Positions 11,510 through 53,559 of a DNA stretch of 55,187 nucleotides are shown here, piece after piece. The position numbers were made by a program, and so were the translations under genes. The notes under the pieces were generated by a model. It made no database searches. It was not told the origin of the DNA and saw nothing but the letters and a program-made list of their open reading frames with translations. Each line of letters opens with the position of its first letter. Positions within the stretch are counted from its first letter, which is position 1. This DNA comes from Acidimicrobiales bacterium (GTDB lineage: Bacteria > Actinomycetota > Acidimicrobiia > Acidimicrobiales > Ilumatobacteraceae): positions 1-55,187 of the forward strand of contig CANIBN010000001.1 of NCBI GenBank assembly GCA_947465505.1, in the 5' to 3' direction.

Positions 11510-11528
11510 GTGTCGATGGTAGGGCACC

Positions 11529-12734: not shown

Positions 12735-12745
12735 GCTGCCGAATG

Positions 12746-14029
12746 TTACGCAGACGTCGTCGTGGTCGTGGTCGCTGCCTCCTGCGCGAGAAGTGCCTCG
12801 GTTGCGGTGATGAGCCCTGCCACGTAGATCCCGATGTTCTCCTCGCACGCCCCGGTGCACTCCGGGTTGCTGTCGAACAGATAGGTCACACCGCCGAGTT
12901 CCCACACGTACGCCATCGTCTCGATGTCCCAGTCGAGGTGCCGCACCCTCCACACCTTCACGGTGCTGATGGTCTCGGTGGTCACCTCGAGTCGGTCTTC
13001 ATTCGACGCGACGGACTTGACCAATGCAGCAACGAAGGCCTTGATGGTCTTCGGGTTCTTCTTGAGGGAGTTGCGCAGCTCGAGCAGTTGGAGCAGGCCG
13101 AGGTTCGCCGTGTAGTCAGATGCTGCGAGGTCGCCACCGTGCACGACGTAGTGGAGCGAACCCCGTTCAAGGAACGGCACTCCCTTGAACGCTGCGTAGA
13201 ACCACACGGAGTACTCGTAGGCGGCGTCGACATACAGGAAGTCCTCGATGGGAACGAGTCGAGCAGCAAGCGAGAGATCCTCTGCCGCCAGACTCTTGTT
13301 GCCCGGCGGCGTCTTTACGGTCGCGGCCGGGATCGGCAGGCCCTGCAACTGGCTCACGTAGGCCGCGATGAAGTCCGTCGGGTAGGCCTCGTTGCCCGTG
13401 TAGGTGAGGTCCCACACCGTGTAGACGATCCCCGACTGAGTCCACATCCACAGCTGGAAGCCATCGCCAAGGACGTCGTACACGGTGATCGCGCCGATCG
13501 TCGAGGTACTCGTCGCGGTGAACGATGGGTCGAAGGTGTGCAGCTTCACGACGATGTCGACGAGGTCGCCGACGTTTGCAGCGGACCCGGCATCCCGCAG
13601 TGAGTACATCTGGAACATGGCGACGAGGTGACGCTGCTTGAGCACCATGTGTAGCGAGGTCGACGCGAACAGATCCTTGGCCTGCGGCACCCGGTTCAAG
13701 TCGTCTACCTGGAACTGGGCGTACGCCGGCGTGTAGTCGAAGTACTCGTAGCCCGGGACGGGCTTGAGGGACCGCGAGAGGAGGACTCCCTCGAGCTGTG
13801 TCTTTGGGGCGGTCGTGGTTGTCGAACTGGTCGTGGTGCTGCTCGTCGTCGTTGTCGACGAGGTCGTTGCGGCAGCAACGGTGGTCGTTGGGGCAGCAGT
13901 AGTGGCAGCGGCGGTAGTCGACGTAACCGCCGACCCGCTCCCACCGGAGCCACAGGCCCCCAAGAGGGCAGCCATCGCCACCCCAATCGACGCCCGTTGT
14001 CTTGCCTTCCACAGCCGGTTCAGTGCCAT
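12746..14029 (-). CDS. Lipoprotein of unknown function with a Thr/Ser-rich linker
   Basis: Internal start MALNRLWKARQRASIGVAMAALLGAC gives a signal peptide plus lipobox LLGAC. A TSTTAAATTAAPTTTVAAATTSSTTTTSSTTTSSTTTT linker follows, and the C-terminus has a TTTTTT tail. I recognised no family motif. Confidence 0.6.
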   Translation of the reverse strand: MALNRLWKARQRASIGVAMAALLGACGSGGSGSAVTSTTAAATTAAPTTTVAAATTSSTTTTSSTTTSSTTTTAPKTQLEGVLLSRSLKPVPGYEYFDYTPAYAQFQVDDLNRVPQAKDLFASTSLHMVLKQRHLVAMFQMYSLRDAGSAANVGDLVDIVVKLHTFDPSFTATSTSTIGAITVYDVLGDGFQLWMWTQSGIVYTVWDLTYTGNEAYPTDFIAAYVSQLQGLPIPAATVKTPPGNKSLAAEDLSLAARLVPIEDFLYVDAAYEYSVWFYAAFKGVPFLERGSLHYVVHGGDLAASDYTANLGLLQLLELRNSLKKNPKTIKAFVAALVKSVASNEDRLEVTTETISTVKVWRVRHLDWDIETMAYVWELGGVTYLFDSNPECTGACEENIGIYVAGLITATEALLAQEAATTTTTTSA

Positions 14030-23894: not shown

Positions 23895-24013
23895 TGCGAA
23901 ACCCCTCCCACGCAGCGACCCGACGCGACTAGCGGTGGGGCCACCCCCCTGTGAGAGACTCTGACCACTTGCCGGCCACGGGGGTGTGCCGGCCGAGAGT
24001 CAGGGGAATACAG

Positions 24014-26602
24014 ATGTCGAACAGTGGATCTCAGCGTGAACTGGACGTCGTGGTGGTGGGTGCGGGCTTTGCCGGCATGTACCTCCTCTACAAGCTGCGC
24101 CCGCTCGGTTTCTCGGTCAAGGTCCTCGAGGCCGGCACCGACGTCGGCGGCACCTGGTTCTGGAACCGTTACCCGGGTGCCCGGGTGGACATCCAGAGCG
24201 TCGAGTACTCGATGACCTTCGATCCGGAGCTTGAGAAGGACTGGAAGTGGACGGAGAAGTACTCCCCCCAGCCCGAGCTGCTCAAGTACGCACAGCACAT
24301 CTCGGAGCGTTACGACCTCCGCAAGGACATCGAGTTCACCACCAAGGTGGAGTCGGCCAAGTGGGACGACAAGTCGGAGCGCTGGACCATCAAGACGTCC
24401 AAGGGCGACACGATCACCGCCAAGTACTACGTGATGGCCTCGGGAACTCTGTCGGTGCCGAAGGAAGTCGACATCGAAGGGACGAGCCGCTTCAAGGGCG
24501 CTACCTACCTCACGAGCCGTTGGCCGCACGAGGGCGTGGACTTCACGGGCAAGCGCGTTGCCGTCATCGGTACCGGTTCGTCCGCCATCCAGTCCATCCC
24601 GATCATCGCCTCGCAGGCCAAGTCGCTCACGGTGTTCCAGCGCACGCCGAACTTCTCGATCCCGGCCTACAACGGTCCGGTGCCCAAGGAAGTGCTCGAC
24701 GAGTACTGGTCGGACCGTGATGGCTTCCGTCAGGCCCAGCGTGAATCTGCCGCCGGCGTGAAGCACACCCCCACCACGGTGAGCGCCCTGAGCGTCAGCG
24801 ACGAAGAGCGCAACCGCATCTACGAAGCAGCGTGGGCAAAGAGCGGCCTTGTGGAGTTCCTCGGCTGCTTCGCCGACCACATGACCAACCCGGTCGCGAA
24901 CGAGTACCTCGCCGAGTTCGTGCGCAACAAGATCCGCGCCACCGTCAAGAATCCTGAGACGGCCGAGGACCTCTGCCCGAAGACGTACCCCATCGGCACC
25001 AAGCGCCTCTGTGTCGACACGAACTACTACGCCACCTACAACCTGCCGCACGTGCGCCTGGTGAACATCCGCAAGAACCCGCTGAAGACCATCACCGAGA
25101 CCGGAATCGACACGCAGGACGAATCGTTCGAGTTCGACGCCATCGTGTTCGCCACCGGCTTCGACGCTATGACTGGCGCCATGGTGAGCGTGGACATCGA
25201 GGGCCGCAACGGCAACACGCTGAAGTCGGCGTGGGAGGCCGGTCCGCACACGTACCTCGGCCTCATGTCCAAGGACTTCCCGAACCTGTTCATGGTCACC
25301 GGTCCGCAGAGCCCGTCGGTGCTCTCGAACATGATCATCTCCATCGAGCAGCACGTCGACTGGATCACCGACTGCCTCGTGAACCTGCGCAGCGACGGCT
25401 TCAGCACCATCGAGCCCACGCAGACCGCACAGGACGCCTGGGTGCAGCACACCAACGACTACGGCGACATCTCGATGATGTTCAAGGCCAACTCGTGGTA
25501 CGTCGGCGCAAACGTGCCCGGCAAGCCGCGCGTGTTCATGCCCTACGCCGGCGGCGTCGGGCCGTACCGCGCCACCTGCGACGAGGTCGTGAAGCGCGGC
25601 TACCTCGGCTTCGAGCGCAAGGGCCCGAAGGGTGCTGCAGTAAACGACGGCAAGATCAAGCAACTCATGCCTGACGTCGAGTTGTTGCTCCAGGCCATGG
25701 CCACGATGGACATTCCGCTCTTTGAGAGCATGTCGGCAGCCGATGCGCGTGCGTTCGGTGACACCATGAACACGGGTCGGCCGGCCGGACCCGAGATTGG
25801 CGAGATGGTCGACGGAACGCTTCCCGGTGCCGACGGCAGCCCGCTCGAGTACCGGATCTACCGCCCGAAGAGCAAGGGCCCGCACCCGGTCGTCGTGTAC
25901 TACCACGGCGGCGGTTGGGTGCTCGGCAGCGCCACCTCGGACGAGCCAATGATCCGGGATCTCGTCGACCGATCGGACGCGCTCATCGTTTCGGTGAACT
26001 ACCGCCACGCGCCCGAGGCGAAATTCCCCGCTGCAGCTGACGACGCGTTCGCCGCGTTGAAGTGGGTTGCCGACCACGTCGCAGAGATCGGTGGCATCCC
26101 CGGCAAGTTGGCCGTGGCCGGCTGGAGTGCCGGGGCCAACCTCGCTGCCGTGGTGAGCCAAGGTGCCCGCGACAACGCTGGTCCGGCGCTCTCCGGGCAG
26201 TTGCTGCTCACACCGGTCACAGACGGCAGCAAGCAGTGGCCCTCCTACACGGGCAACGGTGAGGGATTCATCCTCACCGAGAACCTCATGGACTGGTTCT
26301 GGGATCACTACGCCACCAAGGAACAGCGTCTCGACCCCAAGGCATCGCCGCTCCTCGCGAAGAGCCTCGCCGGACTGCCGCCGGCAACGGTGATCACAGC
26401 GGAATTCGACCCGCTGCGCGACGAGGGCGATGCCTACGCCGAGGCGCTTGCCAAGGCTGGCGTGAAGGTCAAGCACATCCGTGCCCGCGGCCACATGCAC
26501 ACCTCGCCGTCGATGGTCGACGTGCTTCCGTCGGGCGCAGCAGTTCGTGCCGAGATGGCCGCAGCAATCCGCGGCTTCTTCGGCGCCACCGTGCCCGCCT
26601 GA
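24014..26602 (+). CDS. Fusion protein: type I Baeyer-Villiger (flavin-containing) monooxygenase N-terminal domain plus HSL-family alpha/beta-hydrolase (esterase) C-terminal domain
   Basis: BVMO part: VVVGAGFAGM, GGTWFWNRYPGARVD, FKGATYLTSRWP...VIGTGSSAIQ and DAIVFATGFDAMTG. Esterase part, from about 25800: YYHGGGWVLGS, GWSAGANLA, DPLRDEG and RGHMH. It is one uninterrupted frame. ATG 24014 is preceded by AGGGGAA. Confidence 0.85.
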   Translation: MSNSGSQRELDVVVVGAGFAGMYLLYKLRPLGFSVKVLEAGTDVGGTWFWNRYPGARVDIQSVEYSMTFDPELEKDWKWTEKYSPQPELLKYAQHISERYDLRKDIEFTTKVESAKWDDKSERWTIKTSKGDTITAKYYVMASGTLSVPKEVDIEGTSRFKGATYLTSRWPHEGVDFTGKRVAVIGTGSSAIQSIPIIASQAKSLTVFQRTPNFSIPAYNGPVPKEVLDEYWSDRDGFRQAQRESAAGVKHTPTTVSALSVSDEERNRIYEAAWAKSGLVEFLGCFADHMTNPVANEYLAEFVRNKIRATVKNPETAEDLCPKTYPIGTKRLCVDTNYYATYNLPHVRLVNIRKNPLKTITETGIDTQDESFEFDAIVFATGFDAMTGAMVSVDIEGRNGNTLKSAWEAGPHTYLGLMSKDFPNLFMVTGPQSPSVLSNMIISIEQHVDWITDCLVNLRSDGFSTIEPTQTAQDAWVQHTNDYGDISMMFKANSWYVGANVPGKPRVFMPYAGGVGPYRATCDEVVKRGYLGFERKGPKGAAVNDGKIKQLMPDVELLLQAMATMDIPLFESMSAADARAFGDTMNTGRPAGPEIGEMVDGTLPGADGSPLEYRIYRPKSKGPHPVVVYYHGGGWVLGSATSDEPMIRDLVDRSDALIVSVNYRHAPEAKFPAAADDAFAALKWVADHVAEIGGIPGKLAVAGWSAGANLAAVVSQGARDNAGPALSGQLLLTPVTDGSKQWPSYTGNGEGFILTENLMDWFWDHYATKEQRLDPKASPLLAKSLAGLPPATVITAEFDPLRDEGDAYAEALAKAGVKVKHIRARGHMHTSPSMVDVLPSGAAVRAEMAAAIRGFFGATVPA

Positions 26603-26670: not shown

Positions 26671-29469
26671 GTGATGCCAATCGACCCGGACGACGACCTC
26701 CAGTCGCCGAGCCTTGCGAGGCTGCACCCGCAGTTCAAGGGCGACGCCCGCGTCTCAGAAATGATCCGGTCGTTCTGGCCGTTCACACGCGGCACACGAT
26801 CGCTCGGAACCGTGCAGATCGTCTTGTCCGTCGCGTTCTTTGTCTGCACCGCCCTGCTGCCGCTACAGATCGGCAACCTGCTCTCGACTGCTCTCAGTTC
26901 GGCCCAGACGGACCGCCAGGTTCGCCAGTACGTCCTCGACCCCGCTGCCGTACAACGTTCCACTCAGACGATGCTGAAGCCCGAGCTAGCAACGCCCGAG
27001 GAGATCCGGGCCGCCGCGCTGGCAATCACGGCCACCGAGGACCAGATCCGTCTCAACGGCGCCGACGAATTGCTCGATGCGCTCTTTCCGCACGGGTTGA
27101 CCTACCGGACCAAGGACCTTGCCGGAATCGACGAGCCCACGACCGAGTGGGAACTCACGGTGAGCAAGTTGTTCAGCCTCCCAAGGCTGTCAAGAACCGA
27201 GGTTGAAGACCTCCGGGACTCCGCAATCAGTTCGAAGACCCGTTCGAGCACTCAGGCGTTTGCGTTCACGGTCAACACGTTGCTCGTCGACCAATCGGCG
27301 AAGAGCCAGCGAGAGGACTGGCGCAATCATCGATTCACCTTCGAACTCGCACGGTTCGGCGCGCTGGTCGGACTCATTGTCGTGCTCCGCGTTGTCGCAC
27401 TCCTGCTCGCCCAGCGCAGCACGCTGTCGAGTGCACGCCGCTTGCAGGATGCAATCTTCGCGAGGGTTCACGACACGGCGTTGGTGGACGCAGGCGCACT
27501 CGCCAGGCCAAGCATGGTGAGCCGGTGCTCCTCGTACGTCGACAACGTGCAAAAGGCATTGCTCAAGGCACAGACCGAGGGGGTCGCCGACCTGGCGGCA
27601 CTTGTGCTGTCGGTCGGCTTCCTCGTCTATATCGATCGCCCAGTTGCACTGTTGATGATCGGGGTCATTGCGCTCTTCGAGATCACACGCCACCTCATCT
27701 CCGGGCGTTGGTCCCGGACCGCCCACGAGCGTCTCGACCTCAACACCTCGCTGAGCGAGGTTGTCGACGGGGCGATTGCTGTCTCTGACGGCATACGCGC
27801 CACGCGCACCGAGGCGGCGGCCCGCGGCACGTTCTCGGGTCGGGCCCAGGCGGTCATGCGCAAGACGAAGCGACTCGAGATCTTCGGCGAGGCATTCCGG
27901 ATCTCGGCCTTCGGCCTCGGACAGTTCAGCGTTCTCACCGTGATCGCCATCGTGGGCTTCGCCCGGCGTGACATCACCCTTGCCCACGCCACTGCCGTGG
28001 TGCTCTACGTGCGTGAGGTTGCGTCGTCGCTCGAACGCCTGCCCGGGATGATTGTCCAACTCCAGGAAACCGCTCCCTACATGCGACGGCTTCGACGGGT
28101 CCTTGCGGCTCCGCTTCGCCGGGTGGAACCGGTGACTCCACAACCATTCCCGGTTGCTCCGGTAGCGCTGACCTTTGATCACGTCGGGAAGGTGTACCCG
28201 GACGACTCACCGGGTTGCGAGGACGTCTCGTTCACTGCACGACGAGGGTCATGGACCTACCTCGTCGGCACGAGCGGAAGCGGCATCTCCTCCGTTCTGG
28301 AACTCGCAACCGGCTTGGAGCATCCGAACCTCGGCACCGTAAGCATCGACGTCACCGACCTCAGCCGAATCCCGCATGCGACGCTCTCCGAGCACCTTGC
28401 CGTGCTCCCCGAGTTCCCGTCGGTGTTCGAGGGAACCGTTGCAGCGAACCTCACGGTGAACTGTGGGGTCGTCGATGAGGAGGAACTCGAACGAGTCGTC
28501 CGTGTCGTCGGACTAGAGCCTTGGGTAGGCACGCTCGAGAGCGGCCTCCAGACACTCATCGGTCTGCCGCGCCGAACCCTCGACATCGACATCCGAGTAC
28601 GCCTCACCCTTGCGAGGATGGTGCTGAGCCGGGCGGACGTCGTCATCTTGGTGGACCCGAGCCGCTATCTCGACCGCGAGGTCGCCGACGAACTCTGGGC
28701 GCTGATGCACCGGACGTTCGAGGACCGACTGGTTCTGGCCAGCACCGAGCGGCTCGACCGACTGTCTGACGAGGAAACAGTGCTGTGTTTCCGCAGCGGA
28801 ACCGTGCTCGAGCGGGGCACTGTCAAAGAACTCCGAGCGCGCGACGGTCTGTTCACGGCGCTCTGGAAACGCTTTGTCGATGGCGCCGAGCAGTACGAGG
28901 AACTCGCTGCCATTCCTGCCCTTGCCGGCCTGTCGGCCGAGTCCCTGCGCGACCTGTCCTCCCGACTCGTCACCGAACGCTTCGCGGCCGGTGAGACCGT
29001 CTTCAGCACCGGATCCCCTGCTGAACGCGTGTACGTCGTCGTAGATGGTGTGGTCGATGTCCTCGACGACGCGGGTCGTTCCGAGACCATACGGACGGGT
29101 TCGCACTTCGGCGACATGGACGCGCAATCCAACGACGTGAGGACCTCGACTGCCCGGGCGCGCACCGACCTCGTGGTCCGCAGTCTCCACCGGCTCAGCA
29201 TTTCGCGCGGGCTCTCTGGCATCCTCGACCGACCGGACGGCGAGCGGGTGCTCTTCACCTGGCTGACGCGGCACGGCTCTGCAACTCGCAGCGAACTCAA
29301 CCAACTCGACGACCGCATCGATGTGAACGAGGCGCTCACGGGTCTTCTGGCAAGCGGCATGCTCCTTTCCGGAACCGACGCGGGCGGGGAGACCACCTAT
29401 CGGGTGAGCGGCGCGCGCCGTCAGCGGGCGCGCTCGACAGCGCTGCTCGATTCGTTGTTCAACGACTAG
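26671..29469 (+). CDS. ABC-exporter-like membrane protein with a degenerate (non-catalytic) NBD, fused to a cyclic-nucleotide-binding domain and a winged-helix-like C-terminus
   Basis: The transmembrane domain is of the type I exporter kind, with an insert of about 150 aa after TM1. Walker A is GTSGSGISS (Lys to Ile). The signature is LDIDI instead of LSGGQ. Walker B is VVILVDP (no catalytic Glu). The H-loop is absent (ASTERL). The CNB domain reads GETVFSTGSPAERVYVVVDGVV...FGDMDAQSNDVRTSTARA. The tail is LTRHGSATRSELNQL...ALTGLLASGMLLS...TYRVS. Confidence 0.75.
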   Translation: MMPIDPDDDLQSPSLARLHPQFKGDARVSEMIRSFWPFTRGTRSLGTVQIVLSVAFFVCTALLPLQIGNLLSTALSSAQTDRQVRQYVLDPAAVQRSTQTMLKPELATPEEIRAAALAITATEDQIRLNGADELLDALFPHGLTYRTKDLAGIDEPTTEWELTVSKLFSLPRLSRTEVEDLRDSAISSKTRSSTQAFAFTVNTLLVDQSAKSQREDWRNHRFTFELARFGALVGLIVVLRVVALLLAQRSTLSSARRLQDAIFARVHDTALVDAGALARPSMVSRCSSYVDNVQKALLKAQTEGVADLAALVLSVGFLVYIDRPVALLMIGVIALFEITRHLISGRWSRTAHERLDLNTSLSEVVDGAIAVSDGIRATRTEAAARGTFSGRAQAVMRKTKRLEIFGEAFRISAFGLGQFSVLTVIAIVGFARRDITLAHATAVVLYVREVASSLERLPGMIVQLQETAPYMRRLRRVLAAPLRRVEPVTPQPFPVAPVALTFDHVGKVYPDDSPGCEDVSFTARRGSWTYLVGTSGSGISSVLELATGLEHPNLGTVSIDVTDLSRIPHATLSEHLAVLPEFPSVFEGTVAANLTVNCGVVDEEELERVVRVVGLEPWVGTLESGLQTLIGLPRRTLDIDIRVRLTLARMVLSRADVVILVDPSRYLDREVADELWALMHRTFEDRLVLASTERLDRLSDEETVLCFRSGTVLERGTVKELRARDGLFTALWKRFVDGAEQYEELAAIPALAGLSAESLRDLSSRLVTERFAAGETVFSTGSPAERVYVVVDGVVDVLDDAGRSETIRTGSHFGDMDAQSNDVRTSTARARTDLVVRSLHRLSISRGLSGILDRPDGERVLFTWLTRHGSATRSELNQLDDRIDVNEALTGLLASGMLLSGTDAGGETTYRVSGARRQRARSTALLDSLFND

Positions 29470-30194: not shown

Positions 30195-30300
30195 GGCGGC
30201 AACGTAGCCCGGGGCACCAAAACACCTTCGGACCACCTATTGTGTTCCTGTGCGCACTCGCAGTGAGTCCAGCATTTCGGGGGAGGAGCGACTGACCCGG

Positions 30301-32898
30301 ATGCTCCGTGCCCTGTGGACCGTCTGGCTTCTCGCAGCGGTGAGCACCACGTCCCTCCTCACCGTGCCGAGCAGGTCGGCATCTGCAGCACCGTCGGCGC
30401 CCCCGCCGGCGCGCCGCTCGCCCGTCCACCACCCACGGGGGACGAACCGTTTGATCGTGCGCTTGGGTGCCGGCACCGGCGGTTCCACGCTCGGCGCCGT
30501 GCACGCCGCTTCGGCCGCCGGCGTCAAGGTGGCGGGGGCCAGGGTTCTCAGCCGCACCACCAGCGTCGTGCTCACACTCCCCGAACGGCTTGAGGGCGAT
30601 GCACTCGACGCCGCGATCACGGCGGTCGCCGCCGAGCCCGGGGTTGTCTCGGTGGAACCGTCGCGTCGCATGTATGCGAGCTCTCTCCCCAACGATCCCT
30701 ATTACTCCGACCAGTGGAACCTGCGGGCCAACACCTCCAACAACTACGGGGCAAACGTCGCTCCTGGCTGGGATGTCACCACCGGCAGTGCCGAGGTGGT
30801 GGTTGCAGTCATCGATACCGGCATCACCGATCACCCCGACCTCGACGGGCGCGTGCTGCCCGGCTACGACTTCATCGGCGACGTTGATACGGCGAACGAC
30901 GGCGACGGCCGCGACAGCGATGCGCACGACCCCGGCGACTGGATCGCCCCGTACGAGACCGTTGCGGGTGCTGCATTCGCTGGCTGCGCATCCGATGACA
31001 GTTCATGGCACGGATCACACGTCGCAGGCATCATCGCCGCCACTGGCAACAATTCCATCGGCATTGCCGGTGTGGACTGGGGCGTGAAGATCCTCCCGCT
31101 GCGCGTCCTCGGCAAGTGCGGTGGTGATAACGGTGACGTGATCGACGCCATGCGCTGGGCCGTTGGCATCGACATCAGTGGAGTCCCGCACAACGCGAAC
31201 CCGGCCAAGGTGGTCAACATCAGCCTGGGCGGACGAACAGGTTCCTGCAGTTTCGCCATGCAACAGGCCATCAACGACGTCATTGCGGCCGGCGCCGTGG
31301 TGGTCACAGCGGCCGGAAACGATGGCGAGCCCGCGTCGACCAACGAACCGGGAAACTGCTCCGGAGTCATCAACGTGGCTGCCACCGGCAAGTACGGCGA
31401 ACGCGCTTCCTACAGCAACTACGGCAGCGCTGTCACTCTTGCGGCACCCGGCGGTGGCGATTTCGACTGGGGTATCCGCTCCACCGTCAATGCCAGCAAG
31501 ACCTCCCCCACTGTCGGCACCTACCGGAACTTTCAGGGCACCAGCATGGCGGCACCGCACGTCGCCGGCGCGGTGTCGCTCCTGCTGTCCCTTGCCCCCA
31601 CGCTGACGCCCAACCAGACCCGAACGGTGCTCACGTCCAGTGCTACCGCGTTCCCGACCACCGGCACCTACAGCACCTGCAGCGGCCGATGCGGGGCGGG
31701 GGTGTTGAACGTTCAGGCCGCGCTCATCGTGGCCGGCAACCTCCGCCCCCCCGGCGCGCCGACTGCGCTCCAAGCCATCCCCGCGCCGGGAAGTGTGACG
31801 CTCTCGTGGGAGGCGCCCGTCGATACCGGCGGCACCGACATCGTGGACTACCGAATCCAGCGATCGACCAACGGTGGGGTCTCGTGGGCAACCGTCCGGG
31901 ACAGCACGAGTCCGCTGACGGGGGCCACGATTACCGGCCTCACGAATGGCGCCACCTACACGTTCCGCGTCGCGGCGATCAACCGCGTCACCGTCGGCGA
32001 CTGGTCGCTCTCCGCCGCCGCTACGCCGGCAACCGTCCCGGGACGTGCACGATCGTTCGTCGCACGCCGAGGCGACCAGCGCGTCTCGCTGTCGTGGCGC
32101 AAGCCGGTCAGCACCGGTGGTGCGGCGATTCAGCATTACTCCATCGAGGAGTCAACAGACGGCGTGCAGTGGAACGAGATCGTCCAGGTACCCGGCACGT
32201 CAACTGCCACGACCGTGCTCGGCCTCATCAACGGTGTGCGATATCGCTTCCGCGTTACTGCCGTGAATCAGGCGGGGGCCGGCACGCGGTCCACGCTCGC
32301 ATCTGCCACTCCCCTGTCGGTTCCCGGTGTCCCCGGGAACCTCGATGGCACGCCAACAAATCGATCGGTGGCGCTCACCTGGACGGCGCCGCTCACCGAC
32401 GGGGGCACTCGAATCACGCGCTACATCGTTCAACGCTCTCGCGATGGTGGCAGCACCTGGACCACGCTCCTGCGGGGAACCTCGCTCAACCCGGCACAAC
32501 TGGTGAAGTACCTAGAGAACGGGCGTGACTACGTCTTCCGGGTTGCCGCTCGCAACTCGCTCGGTCGGGGGCCGTGGTCGATCCCGTTTACCGCGAGGCC
32601 GCGCACCACCGCCTCTGCGCCGCTTGCCGTCACCGTGACCGCCGGTAACAGTGAGGTGTTGGTGTCGTGGTCTGCGCCGAAGTCCACAGGCGGATCCGAG
32701 ATCACCGCCTACCAGATTGAGGTATCGACCGACGGTCTTACCTGGTCACCCGCCGGCACGACGGCCGACGGGGCCGCGCGCTCGTTCACCGCAAGCGCAC
32801 TTGTCAACGACGCGTCGTACCGGTTCCGCGTTGCCGCAGTGAATGCGGCGGGCACGGGGTCATTCAGCGACCCGCGCACCGCCACACCACACGTCTAA
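30301..32898 (+). CDS. Secreted S8 (subtilisin-like) serine peptidase with an I9 propeptide and four C-terminal fibronectin type III domains
   Basis: The signal is MLRALWTVWLLAAVSTTSLL. The catalytic residues are in VAVIDTGI, WHGSHVAGII and GTSMAAPHVAG. Four FN3-like units of about 95 aa follow (...LSWEAPVDTGGTDIVDYRIQ...YTFRVAAIN...). The alternative GTG start at 30250 cannot be excluded. Confidence 0.9.
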   Translation: MLRALWTVWLLAAVSTTSLLTVPSRSASAAPSAPPPARRSPVHHPRGTNRLIVRLGAGTGGSTLGAVHAASAAGVKVAGARVLSRTTSVVLTLPERLEGDALDAAITAVAAEPGVVSVEPSRRMYASSLPNDPYYSDQWNLRANTSNNYGANVAPGWDVTTGSAEVVVAVIDTGITDHPDLDGRVLPGYDFIGDVDTANDGDGRDSDAHDPGDWIAPYETVAGAAFAGCASDDSSWHGSHVAGIIAATGNNSIGIAGVDWGVKILPLRVLGKCGGDNGDVIDAMRWAVGIDISGVPHNANPAKVVNISLGGRTGSCSFAMQQAINDVIAAGAVVVTAAGNDGEPASTNEPGNCSGVINVAATGKYGERASYSNYGSAVTLAAPGGGDFDWGIRSTVNASKTSPTVGTYRNFQGTSMAAPHVAGAVSLLLSLAPTLTPNQTRTVLTSSATAFPTTGTYSTCSGRCGAGVLNVQAALIVAGNLRPPGAPTALQAIPAPGSVTLSWEAPVDTGGTDIVDYRIQRSTNGGVSWATVRDSTSPLTGATITGLTNGATYTFRVAAINRVTVGDWSLSAAATPATVPGRARSFVARRGDQRVSLSWRKPVSTGGAAIQHYSIEESTDGVQWNEIVQVPGTSTATTVLGLINGVRYRFRVTAVNQAGAGTRSTLASATPLSVPGVPGNLDGTPTNRSVALTWTAPLTDGGTRITRYIVQRSRDGGSTWTTLLRGTSLNPAQLVKYLENGRDYVFRVAARNSLGRGPWSIPFTARPRTTASAPLAVTVTAGNSEVLVSWSAPKSTGGSEITAYQIEVSTDGLTWSPAGTTADGAARSFTASALVNDASYRFRVAAVNAAGTGSFSDPRTATPHV

Positions 32899-32899
32899 C

Positions 32900-33667
32900 T
32901 CAGGAGCCCGACCACTCCGGTGCACGCTTCTCGGCGAATGCCTTCGGGCCTTCCTTCGCGTCGTTCGACGTGAAGACCGTCTTTTGCAGCGGCTCCTGGA
33001 TCTTGTAGAACTCGTCCTCGGTGATGCCAATGGCGGCACGCACGAGTTGCTTCGAGGCAGCAACGGCGAGCGGCGCGTTCTTCGCCACTCGCTGAGCGAG
33101 CTCCAGCGCAACATCGACGGCACTGCCCTTCGGCGCAACGCGGGCAACGAGACCGAGCGCGTTTGCCTCTTCGGCAAGGATCGGGTCGCCGGTAATTGCC
33201 ATCTCCATGGCACGACCGAAGCCGACACGGCTGGGAAGGCGCACGAGCCCACCGCCAGCGGCAAACAGACCGACCGCTACCTCAGGGATGCCGAGCTTGG
33301 CGCCCTCGGCGGCAACGAGCAGGTCACAGCTGAGCGCAAGCTCGAGACCACCGGCGAGGGCAAAGCCCTCGATGGCTCCGATAAGCGGCTTCTTCGAGCC
33401 GTTCTGGATGAACGTCATCATCGGGCCGATGTCCTCCCCGCGGGCAAAGGCCTTGAGGTCCATGCCGGCAGAGAAGCCACGACCTGCACCGGTGAGCACA
33501 CCAGCAGTCAGACCGGGATCGGAGTCGAGACGCTGCACAGCAGCCCACAGCCCGTGTGACAGGGCACCGTTGATCGAGTTCATCGCCTCAGGGCGGTTCA
33601 GGGTGATCAGCAGCACGCGTCCGCGCTGTTCGGTCAGGACGGCATCGTTCTGGGCAGCGTCGCTCAT
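32900..33667 (-). CDS. Enoyl-CoA hydratase/isomerase (crotonase) family
   Basis: Reads VLLITLNRPEAMNSI...LTGAGRGFSAGMDLK...AIEGFALAGGLELALSCDL. A GAGGAG Shine-Dalgarno lies 6 nt upstream of ATG 33667; the ORF extends to 33724. Confidence 0.9.
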   Translation of the reverse strand: MSDAAQNDAVLTEQRGRVLLITLNRPEAMNSINGALSHGLWAAVQRLDSDPGLTAGVLTGAGRGFSAGMDLKAFARGEDIGPMMTFIQNGSKKPLIGAIEGFALAGGLELALSCDLLVAAEGAKLGIPEVAVGLFAAGGGLVRLPSRVGFGRAMEMAITGDPILAEEANALGLVARVAPKGSAVDVALELAQRVAKNAPLAVAASKQLVRAAIGITEDEFYKIQEPLQKTVFTSNDAKEGPKAFAEKRAPEWSGS

Positions 33668-33755
33668 GACGTTCTCCTCGTGTGTCGGGCGCTGTGGAGC
33701 GTCCGGTCTGATGGGCTCGGCCACACGGCCGACGCAGGCACGCTAGCGTTCGGCC

Positions 33756-38737: not shown

Positions 38738-39606
38738 GTGCCGAGGATGCTCCGGTAGTCATCGTTGAGGATGGAACCGTCGGGGCCGTAGAACGACAGA
38801 CGGTCAACCGCCGACTCGAGGGGCACGTATCCGGTCGTTCGACCGACCCGCCATTGCTTCAGGCCCTCGAGCTTGAGCAGCGGCCGCACCACCGGGTCAT
38901 CGAACGACATGGAGAGCAGCAACTGGACGAAACGATCCGCAGTGGCGCGATCAACTCCATCCAGCACCGTCATCGTGCAGTGGTCGAACGGTGCGGTGCG
39001 CGTGAGCACCCGTACCGCACCCGCCGCGATGGTTCCCTCCTTGGCGAACACGAGATGATTGCCGTCGATGACGCAGGCAGCGTCCACCTCGCCAGCGACG
39101 AGTGCCTTCACGGCGTCACGCTCGCCGCCAACATGGTCCCCGTGCTTGTTCACCATCACGTCAAAGCGCCGCACGGTGAAGTCTGACCCGGGTTCGAGTC
39201 CGAGCCCGGCAAGGTGAGCGAGCGGCAGCAGTGTCGCCTGCGGCGAGTCCACCGCACCGACAGCCACCGTGCGACCACGCAGTTGCGAGACCTCGGTGAG
39301 GTTGCTGTCTGCACGCACCAGTACCAGCGAGGTGAGGTCCTGGTCCGAGTCCCGCATGGCGATGGCGTGGGCGCGGGTTCCCCCGGCCTCAGCGAGGCGC
39401 CGCGTGCGCACCCAGCACAGGGGGGAGTCCCAGGTGACGTCCACGTGTCCGGCGAGGTGGGCCTCAGCCTGGGCCTCGTATCCGGAGTAGAGGACGTAGT
39501 CGAAGGCAAAGCCTTGGTCCGCGAACCACTGCTTGAACCCTTCCCAGATCGTCACCACCTTTGGGTCGTAGGCGACAGCCCCCAGGACAAACGGTCGGTT
39601 GCTCAT
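38734..39606 (-). CDS. PhnD/SsuA-type periplasmic-binding-protein fold without a signal peptide
   Basis: Reads MSNRPFVLGAVAYDPKVVTIWEGFKQWFADQGFAFDYVLYSGYEAQAEAHLAGHVDVTW...LRGRTVAVGAVDSPQATLLP...GEVDAACV. It has no hydrophobic N-terminus. Its stop overlaps the start of the downstream gene (ATGA). Confidence 0.7.
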   Translation of the reverse strand: MSNRPFVLGAVAYDPKVVTIWEGFKQWFADQGFAFDYVLYSGYEAQAEAHLAGHVDVTWDSPLCWVRTRRLAEAGGTRAHAIAMRDSDQDLTSLVLVRADSNLTEVSQLRGRTVAVGAVDSPQATLLPLAHLAGLGLEPGSDFTVRRFDVMVNKHGDHVGGERDAVKALVAGEVDAACVIDGNHLVFAKEGTIAAGAVRVLTRTAPFDHCTMTVLDGVDRATADRFVQLLLSMSFDDPVVRPLLKLEGLKQWRVGRTTGYVPLESAVDRLSFYGPDGSILNDDYRSILGT

Positions 39607-39667
39607 GAGCGCCCATCTTCCCAGACGCCCTTCGCCCCTCCGGGGCATCCCGGCTACGGTTCGCCCC

Positions 39668-40882
39668 ATGAGCGAACCGCGTCCGATTCTCGAGGGCCTC
39701 AAGGTCGTCGACATGACCCAGTACCTGGCCGGGCCCACCGTGACCCGCTTGCTTGCCGAGGCCGGCGCCAGTGTCGTGAAGATCGAGCAGCCACCGTACG
39801 GCGACCCAACGAGGGCGCTGGCCGTGCAGAGCGACGGACGCTCCGGTTACTTCATCCAGCAGAACCACGGCAAGCGCAGTCTGTGTGTGGACTTCGACGA
39901 CCCGCGTGGACGCGAGGTGCTCGACAAGCTCATCGCCGAGGCGGACGTGTTCGTGGAGAACTACGGCCCCGGCGTGCTGGCGCGGCGCGGCCTCGACCAC
40001 GACTCACTGCTCAAGAAGCATCCACGTCTCATCGTCGCCACGGTGTCCGGGTTCGGTCGCGACAGCGCGTTCTCCGAGAAGGTCGCCTTCGACCTCATCG
40101 CCATGGCCTACAGCGGCATGCTCCACATCACGGGCGAACCGAACGGCTCCCCGATGCTCGTCGGAACGTCGATCGCTGACGTGATGTCCGGTGTGCACAC
40201 CGTTGCTGGCATCGGCTTAGCGCTCTACCACCGCGAGCGCACCGGTCGCGGCCAGCACATCGACATCTCGATGGTGGACTCCATGTTCCACGCACACGAG
40301 ATGGCCATCCAGGGCAACTCCATCACCAAGGGCAAGTGGCGCCAGAAGCGGAGCGGCGCCAAGTCTGCGCTCAACTCCCCGCAGGGCATCTACAAAGCAC
40401 CCGAGGGCTACATCGTCCTGCAGGTCATGCCCTCGCAGTGGCCCTCGATCTGCCGCGTCATGGACATGCCCGACCTCGAGACTGACGAACGCTTCGCAGA
40501 TCTCCGTAGCCGATACAAGAACCGTGACGAACTCAACGCCATCGTCGAGGAGTGGCTGGCGACACACACCACCGACGCCGAGGTACTGGCGAAACTTGAG
40601 GCAGGGCGCGTGCCCTGTGCACCGGTGCTCGACCCGGCGGACGCCATCGGGCATCCGTACTTCGAGTCGCGCCGAGCCATCCGCCGGATCAACGACCCGA
40701 TCATCGGTGAGGTGGTCATTCCCGGCAACCCACTGCGCTTCTCGGAGTTCCCCTTCGACCTCGACCAGTACGCGCCGCTCCTTGGCGAGCACAACGCCGA
40801 GGTGCTCGGCGAACTCGGTTATGCGAGCGACACCATTGCCTCGCTGGCCGAAGCAGGCGTCCTGCGCTCCGCAGACCGCTGA
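39668..40882 (+). CDS. CaiB/BaiF family (type III) CoA-transferase
   Basis: Reads MSEPRPILEGLKVVDMTQYLAGPTVTRLLAEAGASVVKIEQP...VSGFGRDSAF...ADVMSG. Confidence 0.9.
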   Translation: MSEPRPILEGLKVVDMTQYLAGPTVTRLLAEAGASVVKIEQPPYGDPTRALAVQSDGRSGYFIQQNHGKRSLCVDFDDPRGREVLDKLIAEADVFVENYGPGVLARRGLDHDSLLKKHPRLIVATVSGFGRDSAFSEKVAFDLIAMAYSGMLHITGEPNGSPMLVGTSIADVMSGVHTVAGIGLALYHRERTGRGQHIDISMVDSMFHAHEMAIQGNSITKGKWRQKRSGAKSALNSPQGIYKAPEGYIVLQVMPSQWPSICRVMDMPDLETDERFADLRSRYKNRDELNAIVEEWLATHTTDAEVLAKLEAGRVPCAPVLDPADAIGHPYFESRRAIRRINDPIIGEVVIPGNPLRFSEFPFDLDQYAPLLGEHNAEVLGELGYASDTIASLAEAGVLRSADR

Positions 40883-41332: not shown

Positions 41333-42333
41333 GCGCCAACTCCATCGAGACAGGAATCGGCCGCTGGCTGAGCGAGCACTACGGCAAGCCCGTGACCGTC
41401 GTGGGCCTCGAGCGGGTGACGGCAGGAGCACGACGTATCAACGCGTTGTTCGACGCTGTCGACGCCGACGGCAAGGTACTTGACCGTCTCGCACTCACTG
41501 CGCTCCCGAACCTCGACATCCAGATCCAGCCGATGACCGTCGAAGCGGCCGTTCGCACGCTGGCACATGACGCTGGTGTGCCCACGCCGCGCATCCTCGG
41601 CGCCACCGAGGATCAGTCATACATGGGCGGACCCTTCTTCATCAGCGAACGCATCGACGGCGAGACCATCCCCCGTCGCGTGCTGCGACTCGTCGACCAG
41701 CACGGCATCGGCACCAAGGTGACGAGCCAGTTGGGCGAGGCGTTCGCACGCCTCCACCAGATCAACCCGGCGCTCGCACCTGCCGGCCTCATGCGCCCGC
41801 CGGACGACAACGTCATCGAGGCGGCTCTGACCGGCACCGAGGCACAACTGCGCGAACTGCTGCAGCCGTCACCAACCTTCTCGTACGGACTCCGCTGGCT
41901 CGAGCGCAACCGCCCCGCCGAACCCGAGCGACTGACGATCGTGCACAGCGACGTTCGCAACGGCAACCTCATCATCAGCGAGGAGGGCCTGCGTGCCATT
42001 CTCGACTGGGAGGGCACCCGCATCGGTGACCCCGCCGAGGATGTGGCGTGGCCAATGGTGCGCATGTGGCGCTTCCGCAACGACCACCTGCCAGTCGGCG
42101 GATTCTCCGCCATTGCGCCCTACCGCGCCGCCTACGAGGCGGCCGGTGGAGAGTGGGACGACGACCGTGTGCGCTGGTGGCTCACCCTCGGAACGTTGCG
42201 CTGGGGTCTGGGTCTTGCCAAGCAGTCGCACCAGCACCTGCGCGGCGAGTACGTCACCATCGTCATGGCCGCGAGTGGACGTCGGGTCTCTGAGTTGGAG
42301 TACGACACGCTGATGTGCCTGCGTGGCCTCTGA
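41329..42333 (+). CDS. Phosphotransferase family protein (APH / choline-kinase-like fold)
   Basis: Contains LTIVHSDVRNGNLII (Brenner-type HxDxxxxN) and ILDWEGTRIGDPAEDVAW (DxE/D motif). Confidence 0.8.
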   Translation: MSANSIETGIGRWLSEHYGKPVTVVGLERVTAGARRINALFDAVDADGKVLDRLALTALPNLDIQIQPMTVEAAVRTLAHDAGVPTPRILGATEDQSYMGGPFFISERIDGETIPRRVLRLVDQHGIGTKVTSQLGEAFARLHQINPALAPAGLMRPPDDNVIEAALTGTEAQLRELLQPSPTFSYGLRWLERNRPAEPERLTIVHSDVRNGNLIISEEGLRAILDWEGTRIGDPAEDVAWPMVRMWRFRNDHLPVGGFSAIAPYRAAYEAAGGEWDDDRVRWWLTLGTLRWGLGLAKQSHQHLRGEYVTIVMAASGRRVSELEYDTLMCLRGL

Positions 42334-42365
42334 CAGAACCCCTCGCGTCGGGTACGGTCCATCCC

Positions 42366-43142
42366 ATGGGCCAGTACTGCACCACTGAACGCGACGGACA
42401 CCTCCTCATCGTCACCATCAACCGACCGGAGCGGATGAACGCGCTCCACCCGCCGGCAAACGCCGAGCTGGCTCAGGTGTTCGACGACTTCGCAGCGGAC
42501 CCCGAACTGTGGGTGGCGATCATCACCGGAGCAGGTGACCGCGCCTTCAGTGCAGGCAACGACCTGAAGTACCAGGCGAGTGGCGCGGACATGAGCGGTC
42601 AGCCCGCTGCGGGTTTCGGTGGCCTCTCCGCACGCTGGGACCTCGACAAGCCTGTCATCGCTGCCGTCAACGGAGTCGCCATGGGCGGCGGCTTCGAGAT
42701 CGCTCTTGCGTGTGACCTCATCATCGCTGCGGAGAACGCCCTGTTCGCCCTGCCCGAGGTGCGTGTCGGCCTTGCGGCGCTGGCCGGCGGACTGTTGCGT
42801 CTGCCGCGCACCATCGGCACGAAGCGAGCAATGGGGATGATCCTCACCGGACGCCACGTCCCTGCCGCCGAGGGCTACGAACTCGGCTTCGTCACCGAGG
42901 TGGTGCCGGAGGGTCAGGCGCTCGAGGCCGCGAAGCGTTGGGCTTCCATGATCCTGGAGGTGTCGCCCATGTCGGTGCGCGCATCGAAGCAGGTCGTCTA
43001 CGAGTCCTTCGAGCACGGCGGCATTCGTGCCGCTACCGATGCCCGCTATGCGGCCGTCGATGCGATGCGCAAGAGCGAGGACTTCATCGAGGGACCGCTC
43101 GCCTTCTCCGAGAAGCGCAAGCCGAACTGGAAGGGGCGCTAA
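42366..43142 (+). CDS. Enoyl-CoA hydratase/isomerase family
   Basis: Reads LLIVTINRPERMNAL...ITGAGDRAFSAGNDLK...AVNGVAMGGGFEIALACDL. Confidence 0.9.
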   Translation: MGQYCTTERDGHLLIVTINRPERMNALHPPANAELAQVFDDFAADPELWVAIITGAGDRAFSAGNDLKYQASGADMSGQPAAGFGGLSARWDLDKPVIAAVNGVAMGGGFEIALACDLIIAAENALFALPEVRVGLAALAGGLLRLPRTIGTKRAMGMILTGRHVPAAEGYELGFVTEVVPEGQALEAAKRWASMILEVSPMSVRASKQVVYESFEHGGIRAATDARYAAVDAMRKSEDFIEGPLAFSEKRKPNWKGR

Positions 43143-44206
43143 GGCGCAACCTCGGCAGTTACCGATGAGTCGTCTCTGCCACCGGCATCGAGCCACGCAA
43201 TGAGGTACACCAGTCCCCCGGCGCCGTACATCGCGCCACCGATGCCGTAGAGCTCGTAGCCGAGCAGGGCAACGATGGCGGGAAGCGCTGGCCCGACATG
43301 CACGCTGGCGCGGTCGACGCGCTTGCGGATCACGAACACCTCGATGATCTGCAGCGCGATCACCACCGCAACGATGATTGTGGCGTCCTGCCATCGTTTG
43401 AGGCCGGCCGCGAGCAGGAGCGCAGGCAGACCACCCACGGCGATACCGAGCGTGGGAATGAGACCCACCGTGCCTGCCAGGGCACCGAGCACGAAGGGCG
43501 CCGGAAGGGCAAGCGCCCACGAGGTCAGCCCCACGGCTGCCGCCACCACGATGGTCTGGGCGATCGATGCGACGATGTAGCGACGGCCGTTCTGCAGCGC
43601 CTCCATCGTGCGATTCTCGATCCGGGCACGACGCGTCAGGTCGTTCACCTGAGCAAAGGCTCCACGGAGGATTCGGGGGCCATAGATCAGGAAGAACAGC
43701 GTGAGGATTCCGCACACGAAGTAGGTGCCCGCCGCACCAACTGCGTTACCTACCGTGCTCGACTGCGACGAACTGCGCAGATTGTCGATGAGCGAATTGA
43801 CCCGCTCGACGAGCCGGAATTCCCTCGCCACGGCAGAACGCTTCTCGAGGCTCGAGGCCGCGAGGGGAGCCTCCTTGCTGAGTGTGGAGAGACCGTCCTG
43901 CAGGTTCACGATGATGGACGCCCACACCACCACCGTCATCACGGCAAGGCTGAGCATCGTGACGAGCAGCGCCAACCAGCGCGGCATCCGCTTGTCGAGC
44001 AGGTCGGCAAGCGGCCCGAGCAGTGCTGCGACGAAGATGCAGGCGAACGCCCAACCGATCTGGCGGTGGGCGGCAACGAATGCGTTGCGGAAGAGCAACG
44101 CGAGCACGCAGCCACCGAGGACGATCGCCACTGAGCCCGGGGTCACCCGAACACGGAACAGCCGGAATCCCTGCGGAACCCGGGGAGCACCACTCGGCTC
44201 TGCCAC
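43139..44206 (-). CDS. AI-2E (PerM/UPF0118) family transporter
   Basis: An eight-TM-like profile. The C-terminal block reads ALAGTVGLIPTLGIAVGGLPALLLA...IEVFVIRKRV. Confidence 0.75.
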   Translation of the reverse strand: MAEPSGAPRVPQGFRLFRVRVTPGSVAIVLGGCVLALLFRNAFVAAHRQIGWAFACIFVAALLGPLADLLDKRMPRWLALLVTMLSLAVMTVVVWASIIVNLQDGLSTLSKEAPLAASSLEKRSAVAREFRLVERVNSLIDNLRSSSQSSTVGNAVGAAGTYFVCGILTLFFLIYGPRILRGAFAQVNDLTRRARIENRTMEALQNGRRYIVASIAQTIVVAAAVGLTSWALALPAPFVLGALAGTVGLIPTLGIAVGGLPALLLAAGLKRWQDATIIVAVVIALQIIEVFVIRKRVDRASVHVGPALPAIVALLGYELYGIGGAMYGAGGLVYLIAWLDAGGRDDSSVTAEVAP

Positions 44207-44224
44207 GCCCGTAAGGTACCTGCT

Positions 44225-53530: not shown

Positions 53531-53559
53531 CGGCTACTCCCGGCCAGCATTCTCGCAGA

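Follow-up and report, generated by a model that had tools for sequence, protein, structure and literature searches.

The window analysed here is the entire 55-kb contig (55,187 nucleotides) of an Acidimicrobiales bacterium. One of its open reading frames (ORFs), at 26671–29469 on the forward strand, encodes a 932-amino-acid homologue of type I ATP-binding cassette (ABC) half-exporters; the gene callers of public collections place the start at the ATG at 26674, giving 931 amino acids. The GC content at the first, second and third codon positions (0.67, 0.47 and 0.78) is typical for genes on this contig of ~65% GC. The protein consists of a six-helix membrane domain with a large helical insert, a nucleotide-binding domain (NBD)-like domain, a cyclic-nucleotide-binding (CNB) domain, a winged helix and an Arg-rich tail (Table 1). 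The catalytic motifs of the NBD are all degenerate, and this dead state is a selected trait of the family to which the protein belongs. The carriers are uncultured freshwater actinobacteria, and the evidence on the protein is computational throughout. The positions named in a first-pass annotation of the window each translate exactly as claimed there.

The NBD-like domain keeps the fold and loses the catalytic motifs. Pfam ABC_tran matches residues 517–663 with 51 bits (cut-off 25), and a residue-level HMMER alignment to human ABCB4 fixes the register of the motifs. The Walker A Lys, the Q-loop Gln, the LSGGQ signature and the H-loop His are replaced, and the catalytic Glu of Walker B has become Pro; the Asp of Walker B and that of the D-loop are retained. 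The first-pass annotation had described the same five degenerate motifs, and the alignment bears it out, with no canonical Lys/Glu/His set in another register. Mis-registration of the motifs is ruled out by this alignment and by a MAFFT table of 47 sequences. Conservation within the family was read from alignments of 25 members, and the motif table likewise covers a set of 25. The Walker A Lys is lost in 24 of these 25 representatives (the exception, P0004, has GSGKAG), and the Q-loop Gln, the LSGGQ, the Walker B Glu and the H-loop His are lost in every one, so that private decay of this copy does not account for the motifs. The signature position is variable among members and the A-loop aromatic residue is unconserved. 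The Asp residues of Walker B and the D-loop are invariant, and a set of core glycines is conserved. Because the signature is lost besides Walker A, Walker B and the H-loop, pairing with a different chain would still leave both composite ATP sites defective. Neither site is predicted to form, whether in a homodimer or with a canonical partner. With both sites defective, the earlier view that the protein is something other than an ATP-driven pump is well supported, and a loss of ATP-dependent export is predicted.

The family is small and sharply bounded. A search of 5.8 billion proteins recovers 27 clusters with 33–100% identity and the same architecture, almost all of 900–960 amino acids, before scores plunge from E 1e-126 to E 1e-42 and into generic ABC proteins. 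An exhaustive profile search of 1.84 billion representatives yields ~17 family representatives, followed by a similar drop. The ratio of nonsynonymous to synonymous substitution rates (dN/dS; Nei-Gojobori) against the 82%-identical orthologue on L034 is 0.12 for the whole protein. It is lowest in TM2–TM6 of the transmembrane (TM) helices (0.06) and highest in the NBD-like domain (0.21), with 0.12 for the insert and 0.13 for both the CNB domain and the winged helix. The membrane domain, the two coupling helices, the NBD fold and the NBD–NBD contact at the D-loop are kept by purifying selection. The family is present in 15 of 185,579 species genomes. All 15 are metagenome-assembled genomes (MAGs) of uncultured bacteria, nearly all labelled Actinomycetota, and those with finer labels are Acidimicrobiia (Acidimicrobiaceae, Ilumatobacteraceae and 'Ferrithrix'-labelled). 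Members carry automatic JGI names such as 'ABC-type multidrug transport system fused ATPase/permease subunit/CRP-like cAMP-binding protein' or 'ABC-type branched-subunit amino acid transport system ATPase component'. Judged from the motifs, both names imply an ATPase activity that would be impossible for these sequences.

Table 1. Features of the ABC-type gene and its surroundings in the window
Feature	Position	Strand	Basis or detail
Whole gene (dead NBD, CNB domain, winged-helix tail)	26671–29469	+	Pfam, NCBIfam, ABCB4 alignment, dN/dS
N-terminal cytoplasmic segment with elbow helix, then TM1 (about aa 46–73)	26671–26889	+	Hydropathy, AlphaFold2 (AF2) helices
TM1–TM2 insert of ~150 aa (aa 76–225)	26896–27345	+	AF2 block-mean predicted local distance difference test (pLDDT) 71–92, helices only
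TM2–TM6, long intracellular loops, coupling helices (RPSMVSRCSSYVD; RLDLNT), post-TM6 PYMRRLRRVL	27346–28110	+	dN/dS 0.06
NBD-like domain (aa 498–736)	28162–28878	+	Pfam ABC_tran, ABCB4 alignment, AF2 pLDDT 85–94, Foldseek ABC exporters, dN/dS 0.21
Walker A remnant GTSGSGISS, Lys to Ile (Ile539, 28285–28287)	28267–28293	+	GSSGCGKS in ABCB4, GTSGSGIS here
Q-loop remnant VLPEF, Gln to Glu	28402–28416	+	VSQEP in ABCB4, LPEFP here
Signature remnant LDIDI replacing LSGGQ	28579–28593	+	LSGGQKQR in ABCB4, LDIDIRVR here
Walker B remnant VVILVDP (28639–28659), then D-loop RYLD	28639–28674	+	LLLDEATSALD in ABCB4, ILVDPSRYLD here
H-loop remnant STERL, His to Glu	28741–28755	+	IAHRL in ABCB4, STERL here
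CNB beta-roll (aa 769–841)	28975–29193	+	Pfam PF00027, 45.1 bits against a cut-off of 27.5; AF2 beta-roll
Phosphate-binding cassette FGDMDAQSNDVRTSTARA	29107–29160	+	Gly, Asp, Arg-Thr and Ala retained; hydrophobic helix gone
Winged helix (H-beta-H-H-beta-beta)	29236–29406	+	AF2, Foldseek CRP/GlxR, sub-threshold Pfam winged helix-turn-helix matches
Arg-rich C-terminal tail with short amphipathic end (SGARRQRARSTALLDSLFND)	29407–29466	+	Conserved in clades A, B and C; low pLDDT
Hairpin with 17-bp arms in the 68-nt spacer, ending on the GTG start codon	26633–26671	+	Free energy (dG) -36.5 kcal/mol, z -7.0
Baeyer-Villiger monooxygenase-esterase fusion (883 aa)	23951–26602	+	Baeyer-Villiger/flavin monooxygenase N-terminal half, Abhydrolase_3 esterase C-terminal half
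Secreted subtilase (882 aa)	30250–32898	+	Peptidase_S8 and four fibronectin type III repeats
LivF-like ATPase	49977–50687	-	Liv-type importer operon (49977–54945)
LivG-like ATPase	50671–51405	-	Liv-type importer operon
Fused 715-aa double permease	51383–53530	-	Liv-type importer operon
Liv binding protein	53560–54945	-	Liv-type importer operon
ORF of 1514 aa	1017–5561	-	Sole Pfam match an N-terminal DUF2510 motif
Two AI-2E family (PerM-like) transporter genes	43139–45487		Divergent, adjacent
Acyl-coenzyme A (acyl-CoA) genes	10304–12953; 32900–33724; 48807–49958	-
Acyl-CoA genes	39599–40882; 42315–43142; 46058–47284	+

The membrane domain belongs to a type I exporter, as had been proposed from the sequence at first pass. 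NCBIfam models for CydC, MsbA, CydD and type I secretion ABC proteins align over residues ~215–735 with E 1e-49 to 1e-30, all of these exporter matches scoring far under the family cut-offs. Pfam PF00664 is unreported for the window protein, yet recorded in many members of the family. Six standard TM helices emerge both from hydropathy and from the AF2 model. The full-length model has a mean pLDDT of 83.8 and a predicted template-modelling score (pTM) of 0.70, and its best Foldseek matches are ABC exporters, with target-normalised TM-scores of 0.72–0.82 to solved structures. The scaffold has the six-helix domain, long intracellular loops, coupling helices and NBD fold of a type I (ABCB/CydC/MsbA-like) exporter. 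TM2–TM6 is the most conserved part of the protein, with RPSMxSR in intracellular loop 1, RLDLNT in loop 2 and PYMRRLR after TM6 invariant or nearly so; the N-terminal/TM1 segment carries the conserved motif LHPxxPGEAxVxEMxRxFWPF.

The insert after TM1, also seen at first pass, is conserved in the family. In the AF2 model it is all-helical and stands on extensions of TM1 and TM2, modelled with good confidence. Its position between TM1 and TM2 corresponds to the outer face in type I exporter topology, and it is predicted to be extracytoplasmic. It is acidic (net charge -3 to -17 in the family) and contains three residues invariant in the family, F138, R174 and R213. No homologue of the insert was detected in Pfam or PDB.

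The CNB domain is genuine, with a match above the Pfam gathering score, and the profile of this region matches the CNB domains of PKG, PKA-R and CRP. The phosphate-binding cassette (PBC) had been called largely intact, which holds for only part of it. The family retains the Gly, the Asp/Glu, the Arg-Thr and the Ala, but the Arg is missing in 4 of the 25 tabulated representatives and the hydrophobic helix E-[LIM]-A-L-L is replaced by a D-x-D-P/A-S-like sequence. In the window protein this helix reads DMDAQS where E-L-A-L-L is canonical. A Pycsar-type anti-phage effector was considered for this domain and rejected; the PADLOC matches to the CNB region are weak and generic (E 1e-4 to 1e-5) and no cyclase is found nearby.

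The C-terminal 197 amino acids are predicted by AF2 (pLDDT 80) to form the CNB beta-roll, a short helix and an H-beta-H-H-beta-beta winged helix. The helix, with the strongly conserved sequence SLHRLxIS, is the lid of the CNB domain; a brief stretch without structure (LDRP) links it to the winged helix. Block-mean pLDDT for the predicted winged-helix fold is ~81–91, and the Arg-rich tail behind it ends in LLDSLF. The top Foldseek matches of the segment are MtbCRP (3i54) and GlxR (4byy), aligned over ~225 columns with a probability of 1.0. The domains follow one another as in CRP but are arranged differently, as the root-mean-square deviation (rmsd) of 17–18 Å over the full alignment shows. The helix linking the CNB domain to the winged helix has only ~12 residues, and the long dimerisation C-helix of CRP is absent.

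The winged helix is difficult to place in any known family. None of the 25 tails matches a Pfam winged helix-turn-helix (wHTH) family above threshold, and HTH_Crp is unmatched. Sub-threshold Pfam matches are to AlkZ-like (5/25), TrmB (4/25), Penicillinase_R (2/25) and HTH_20 (1/25, E 0.07), and profile matches in PDB are to AspA, Z-alpha, histone H5 and MarR-type proteins (E 0.02–1). An hhalign comparison with an MtbCRP sequence aligns only the lid region, at 0.9% probability, and leaves the DNA-binding domain unmatched. A profile search for the tail in other protein contexts returned three short fragments only and was uninformative. The net charge of the winged-helix core lies between 0 and -4, and all but one of the 25 members have a negative value. 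Its presumptive recognition helix (DVDxALxxLxADG) is acidic and hydrophobic, and the preceding loop, which joins helices 2 and 3, differs by as many as 9 residues among members. Tyr-Arg is retained in the wing of most members, and the wing makes up a basic patch together with the RRxR of the tail. These features speak against the winged helix acting as a conventional DNA-reading head. The module does not qualify as a CRP/FNR transcription factor, given the missing HTH_Crp match, the unmatched CRP DNA-binding domain, the short linking helix and the acidic winged helix. The first-pass description of the tail as a MarR/ArsR-type wHTH stands as far as the predicted fold; the family label does not, with no HTH_5, HTH_20 or MarR profile match above threshold and an acidic core.

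The exhaustive profile search, combined with sequence inspection, divides this protein and its relatives into four clades. Clade D (P0038, P0052 and others) consists of a transmembrane domain (TMD), NBD and CNB domain only. Clade A (P0143, P0171, P0187, P0152, P0160 and P0136) has a ~250–350-amino-acid N-terminal domain followed by TMD, NBD, CNB domain, winged helix and basic tail. Clades A and D, all of whose members are uncharacterised and metagenomic, share the order TMD-NBD-CNB(-winged helix-basic tail) with the window protein, but differ in having a canonical NBD (Walker A, Q-loop, LSGGQ, Walker B and H-loop) and a canonical PBC of the form FGE[MIV]AL...R[TA]AT. Clade B (750–785 amino acids) has the order TMD-NBD-CNB-winged helix-tail with a non-canonical PBC and a dead NBD that is more eroded than that of clade C. 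Clade C, the present family, combines the clade B architecture, a dead NBD and a non-canonical PBC with the insert in extracellular loop 1 (ECL1), which clades A, B and D lack. Clades A, B and C share their tail motifs (LxxWLxRHGxAT..., a YR in the wing, RRxR...L); therefore the CNB/winged-helix module is older than the catalytic loss. This argues that the CNB domain, winged helix and basic tail are probably an ancestral regulatory module of the exporter clade and not a transcription-factor add-on. The module presumably regulates the pump in the intact-NBD clade, and regulation is a more economical assumption than output as a transcription factor. Its logic would resemble that of the regulatory domains at the C-termini of MalK, MetN and ModC.

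The first-pass annotation had reported no adjacent partner half-transporter, and this extends beyond the window. No other exporter-type membrane domain occurs in the window, and no second half-exporter lies in the flanks of about 20 related loci; a second NBD match at two of them (L013 and L015) belongs to an importer ATPase of the PotA type. Besides the gene itself, the window encodes ABC ATPases only in LivG and LivF, importer subunits that are both canonical. These provide an internal control, showing that the genome maintains normal NBD motifs.

Upstream of the gene, across a 68-nt spacer, lies the Baeyer-Villiger monooxygenase (BVMO)-esterase fusion, which would form an ester and then cleave it within one polypeptide. 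Downstream, a convergent dienelactone hydrolase gene overlaps the target gene by 4 nt, and the subtilase gene that lies further in this direction belongs to the same synteny group. The arrangement of BVMO-esterase, target and dienelactone hydrolase genes is common to L007, L009 and L010 only. Synteny otherwise falls into several unrelated groups with no universal neighbour, and a conserved operon partner is ruled out by the differing neighbourhoods among sub-clades. The hairpin in the upstream spacer recurs in the L034 orthologue (1293–1335, dG -43 kcal/mol, z -8.5). The arms are 17–20 bp across both, with one compensatory T-A to C-G change in L034. It lacks a U-tract, occurs once in the window and matches no Rfam family; conservation was found only in this closest, 82%-identical orthologue. 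Its role may be to end transcription of the upstream gene, as a terminator lacking the U-tract, or to occlude the start codon. The palindrome was rejected as an operator, being a strong RNA hairpin kept only in the closest orthologue.

A different context recurs in other sub-clades and in the short dead-NBD clade. A MinD/ParA-type ATPase of ~250 amino acids (Walker A FRGGTGKS), 65–78% identical between loci, is found 0–8 kb from the ABC-CNB-winged-helix genes. Also recurring there are a HAMP-only membrane protein of ~360–420 amino acids and, often, a polytopic membrane protein of 487–580 amino acids. These contexts occur in L001 (2617–8295), L005 (6473–12107), L029 (2–2703) and L031 (10465–12708), as well as in L008, L011, L013 and L015. 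The MinD/ParA-type ATPase also adjoins one intact-NBD relative, P0143. Of three informative clade A contexts, only one has the MinD/ParA-like and HAMP neighbours. Neither the MinD/ParA-like nor the HAMP neighbours are present in the 55-kb window or in L007, L009 and L010. As a lead, the recurrence could reflect a functional partnership, in which the Arg-rich tail might serve as a ParA-partner peptide, or lineage synteny only.

The window is chromosomal and rich in genes of lipid and CoA metabolism. The acyl-CoA set includes three family III CoA-transferases, two enoyl-CoA hydratases, a thiolase, an acyl-CoA dehydrogenase, an AMP-binding ligase and two luciferase-like monooxygenases, and this density suggests a lipid or steroid-like catabolic island. 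The 1514-amino-acid ORF lies in a region of strong AT skew.

The best structural match of the protein is MsRv1272c (PDB 9iqg_B and 8wcx_B; PMC12038006), with a Foldseek E of 4e-27 and a target-normalised TM-score of 0.82 over ~720 columns. MsRv1272c is the degenerate chain of the mycobacterial heterodimeric isoniazid exporter MsRv1273c/72c (PMC12038006). Both proteins have the actinobacterial type I exporter fold with a helical element in ECL1 between TM1 and TM2. However, this element is ~48 amino acids in MsRv1272c compared with ~150 here, identity is only ~17%, and MsRv1272c lacks the CNB domain and winged-helix tail. MsRv1272c also has an adjacent partner and one consensus ATP site driving isoniazid efflux, and the window protein has neither. 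The heterodimeric exporters TM287/288, TmrAB and MsRv1273c/72c share two properties, an adjacent partner and a canonical signature in the degenerate chain, that are both missing here.

HetC of Nostoc PCC 7120 is the one characterised fusion of a CNB domain and an ABC exporter found in the literature. In vitro its CNB domain binds ppGpp, and the protein needs this domain in vivo (PMC10986499). HetC and the window protein are alike in fusing a type I ABC exporter to a cNMP-binding-type domain, which in HetC is a regulatory ligand sensor. In HetC, however, the CNB domain stands at the N-terminus, ahead of a C39 peptidase, whereas here it is C-terminal. The catalytic ATPase residue of HetC is present and essential, and HetC has no winged-helix tail and no large ECL1 domain. 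The regulators of the CRP/FNR type (MtbCRP 3i54, GlxR 4byy) share the order of CNB domain and winged helix, but the present module is membrane-attached, its winged helix is acidic and the long dimerisation C-helix is missing. Among eukaryotes, CFTR, derived from an ABCC pump, and SUR1/2 reuse ABC exporter folds as a channel and a channel regulator, with degenerate nucleotide sites and an added regulatory domain. Unlike the window protein, which has no competent site, these full-length ABCC proteins retain one such site and still work through ATP binding or hydrolysis.

The reading tentatively favoured here, at somewhat less than an even chance, is that the protein is an ATP-independent, ligand-controlled transmembrane switch or regulator driven by its CNB module. 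It most likely forms a homodimer, as we infer. The C-terminal module, inherited from exporters with intact NBDs, would have become the sole cytoplasmic switch in the present family. A small ligand, either a cyclic nucleotide or another nucleotide-like molecule, may bind the CNB domain and shift the lid helix and the winged helix behind it. Such a shift would alter the association of the two NBD-like domains, and the change could be relayed by the conserved coupling helices to the membrane domain and on to the lineage-specific helical domain predicted outside it, or run in the reverse direction. The retained purpose of the scaffold would then be the conformational coupling between NBD-like dimer and membrane domain, with the CNB domain and the lid-linked winged helix driving or reading it. 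Which ligand binds, which way the signal runs and what the output is are matters of inference. The first-pass description of a cyclic-nucleotide-responsive sensor or regulator is reasonable as far as sensing or regulation goes, but a cyclic nucleotide as ligand is not assured and the module is shared with canonical-NBD relatives.

Several points weigh against this switch. The Arg missing from the PBC in four representatives and the non-canonical PBC helix make both ligand binding and the choice of ligand uncertain, and the coupling from CNB domain to NBD is a proposal. All members come from uncultured organisms and the evidence is computational. The search for a partner spans the 55-kb contig, and an unlinked partner may lie elsewhere in the genome. 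Among gene neighbourhoods that differ from one sub-clade to the next, no output partner was identified. A passive gated conduit is equally compatible with the data. In such a conduit the dead exporter would serve as a channel or facilitator, much as CFTR arose from a pump, gated by the CNB/winged-helix module instead of ATP and capped at its exit by the helical domain. The strongest constraint does fall on the membrane domain (dN/dS 0.06), in or near whose TM helices and extracellular turns lie the invariant charged or polar residues R239, E336, R339, D321 and R431. The ECL1 helical hairpin of MsRv1272c lies over the substrate exit (PMC12038006), and the intact-NBD relatives are presumably true exporters. 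Set against this, no substrate-related genes are consistently adjacent, the recurrent neighbours elsewhere are signalling or positioning proteins and not metabolic ones, and flux without energy input could only run downhill. The conduit is considered unlikely.

The C-terminal module would also allow a membrane-tethered CRP-like transcription factor, in which the winged helix binds DNA under control of the CNB domain and the dead ABC scaffold does no more than anchor and dimerise it at the membrane. Membrane-tethered transcription factors are exemplified by ToxR and CadC. The order of domains is that of CRP/FNR, MtbCRP and GlxR head the structural matches, the Tyr-Arg wing and Arg-rich tail are basic, and the weak profile matches include the DNA-binding winged helices of AspA, Z-alpha, histone H5 and MarR. 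The negative core, the acidic and hydrophobic recognition helix and the variable loop between helices 2 and 3 are nevertheless poorly suited to such a role, as are the lack of a Pfam HTH above threshold, the hhalign result and the missing dimerisation helix. The same tail is moreover carried by relatives with canonical NBDs, and the only upstream palindrome resembles an RNA hairpin, unconserved past the closest orthologue. A tethered factor thus appears quite unlikely. The protein might also be a regulatory, non-hydrolysing subunit of a working transporter, heterodimerising with an unlinked competent half-exporter. Actinobacterial pairs with one degenerate chain are well known (PMC7756269), the closest solved structure is just such a chain, MsRv1272c, which also has an ECL1 helical domain, and intact-NBD relatives of clade A occur in metagenomes. 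Known degenerate chains, however, keep a canonical signature, and its loss here would leave both sites defective; known pairs are also encoded by adjacent genes, and none is adjacent in the window or at about 20 related loci. This assignment is very unlikely. The loss of all catalytic residues would be expected as well of a decaying pseudogene, which the first-pass annotation had allowed for, or of a mis-called ORF. Both are ruled out, with a probability close to nil, by the intact 932-codon frame, the normal third-position GC bias, the dead state shared across the family at 33–100% identity, the dN/dS of 0.12 and the confident AF2 model.

ABC exporters in which one ATP site is degenerate are standard textbook content, and exporters fused to a CNB domain and ABC folds reused for gating or regulation (CFTR, SUR) are known as well. 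Literature searches found no conserved family that carries a large orphan ECL1 domain together with a CNB/winged-helix tail and has no competent ATP site, and a term search of a review of degenerate sites (PMC7756269) found no conserved, selected half-exporter family in which neither site is competent. For metabolic reconstructions of the abundant freshwater Acidimicrobiia, the automatic names of these proteins are misleading. If the family is functional, as its conservation indicates, an alternating-access scaffold can be retained for an ATP-independent job. The clades also provide a natural series for roles of the NBD dimer beyond hydrolysis, from an intact NBD with a CNB domain, through an intact NBD with CNB domain and winged helix and a dead NBD with both, to the last of these plus an extracytoplasmic domain. 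A more far-reaching proposal, given a low probability, is that the family consists of bacterial transmembrane receptors of a new class, with the ABC exporter fold as their frame. In such a receptor a ligand of the CNB/winged-helix module would replace ATP in opening and closing the NBD-like dimer, coupling an extracytoplasmic helical sensor to a cytoplasmic output, possibly the MinD/ParA-type ATPase and HAMP-only protein, whose genes recur close by in sister lineages. If this is true, the alternating-access machinery would have been wholly converted into an ATP-independent signalling device.

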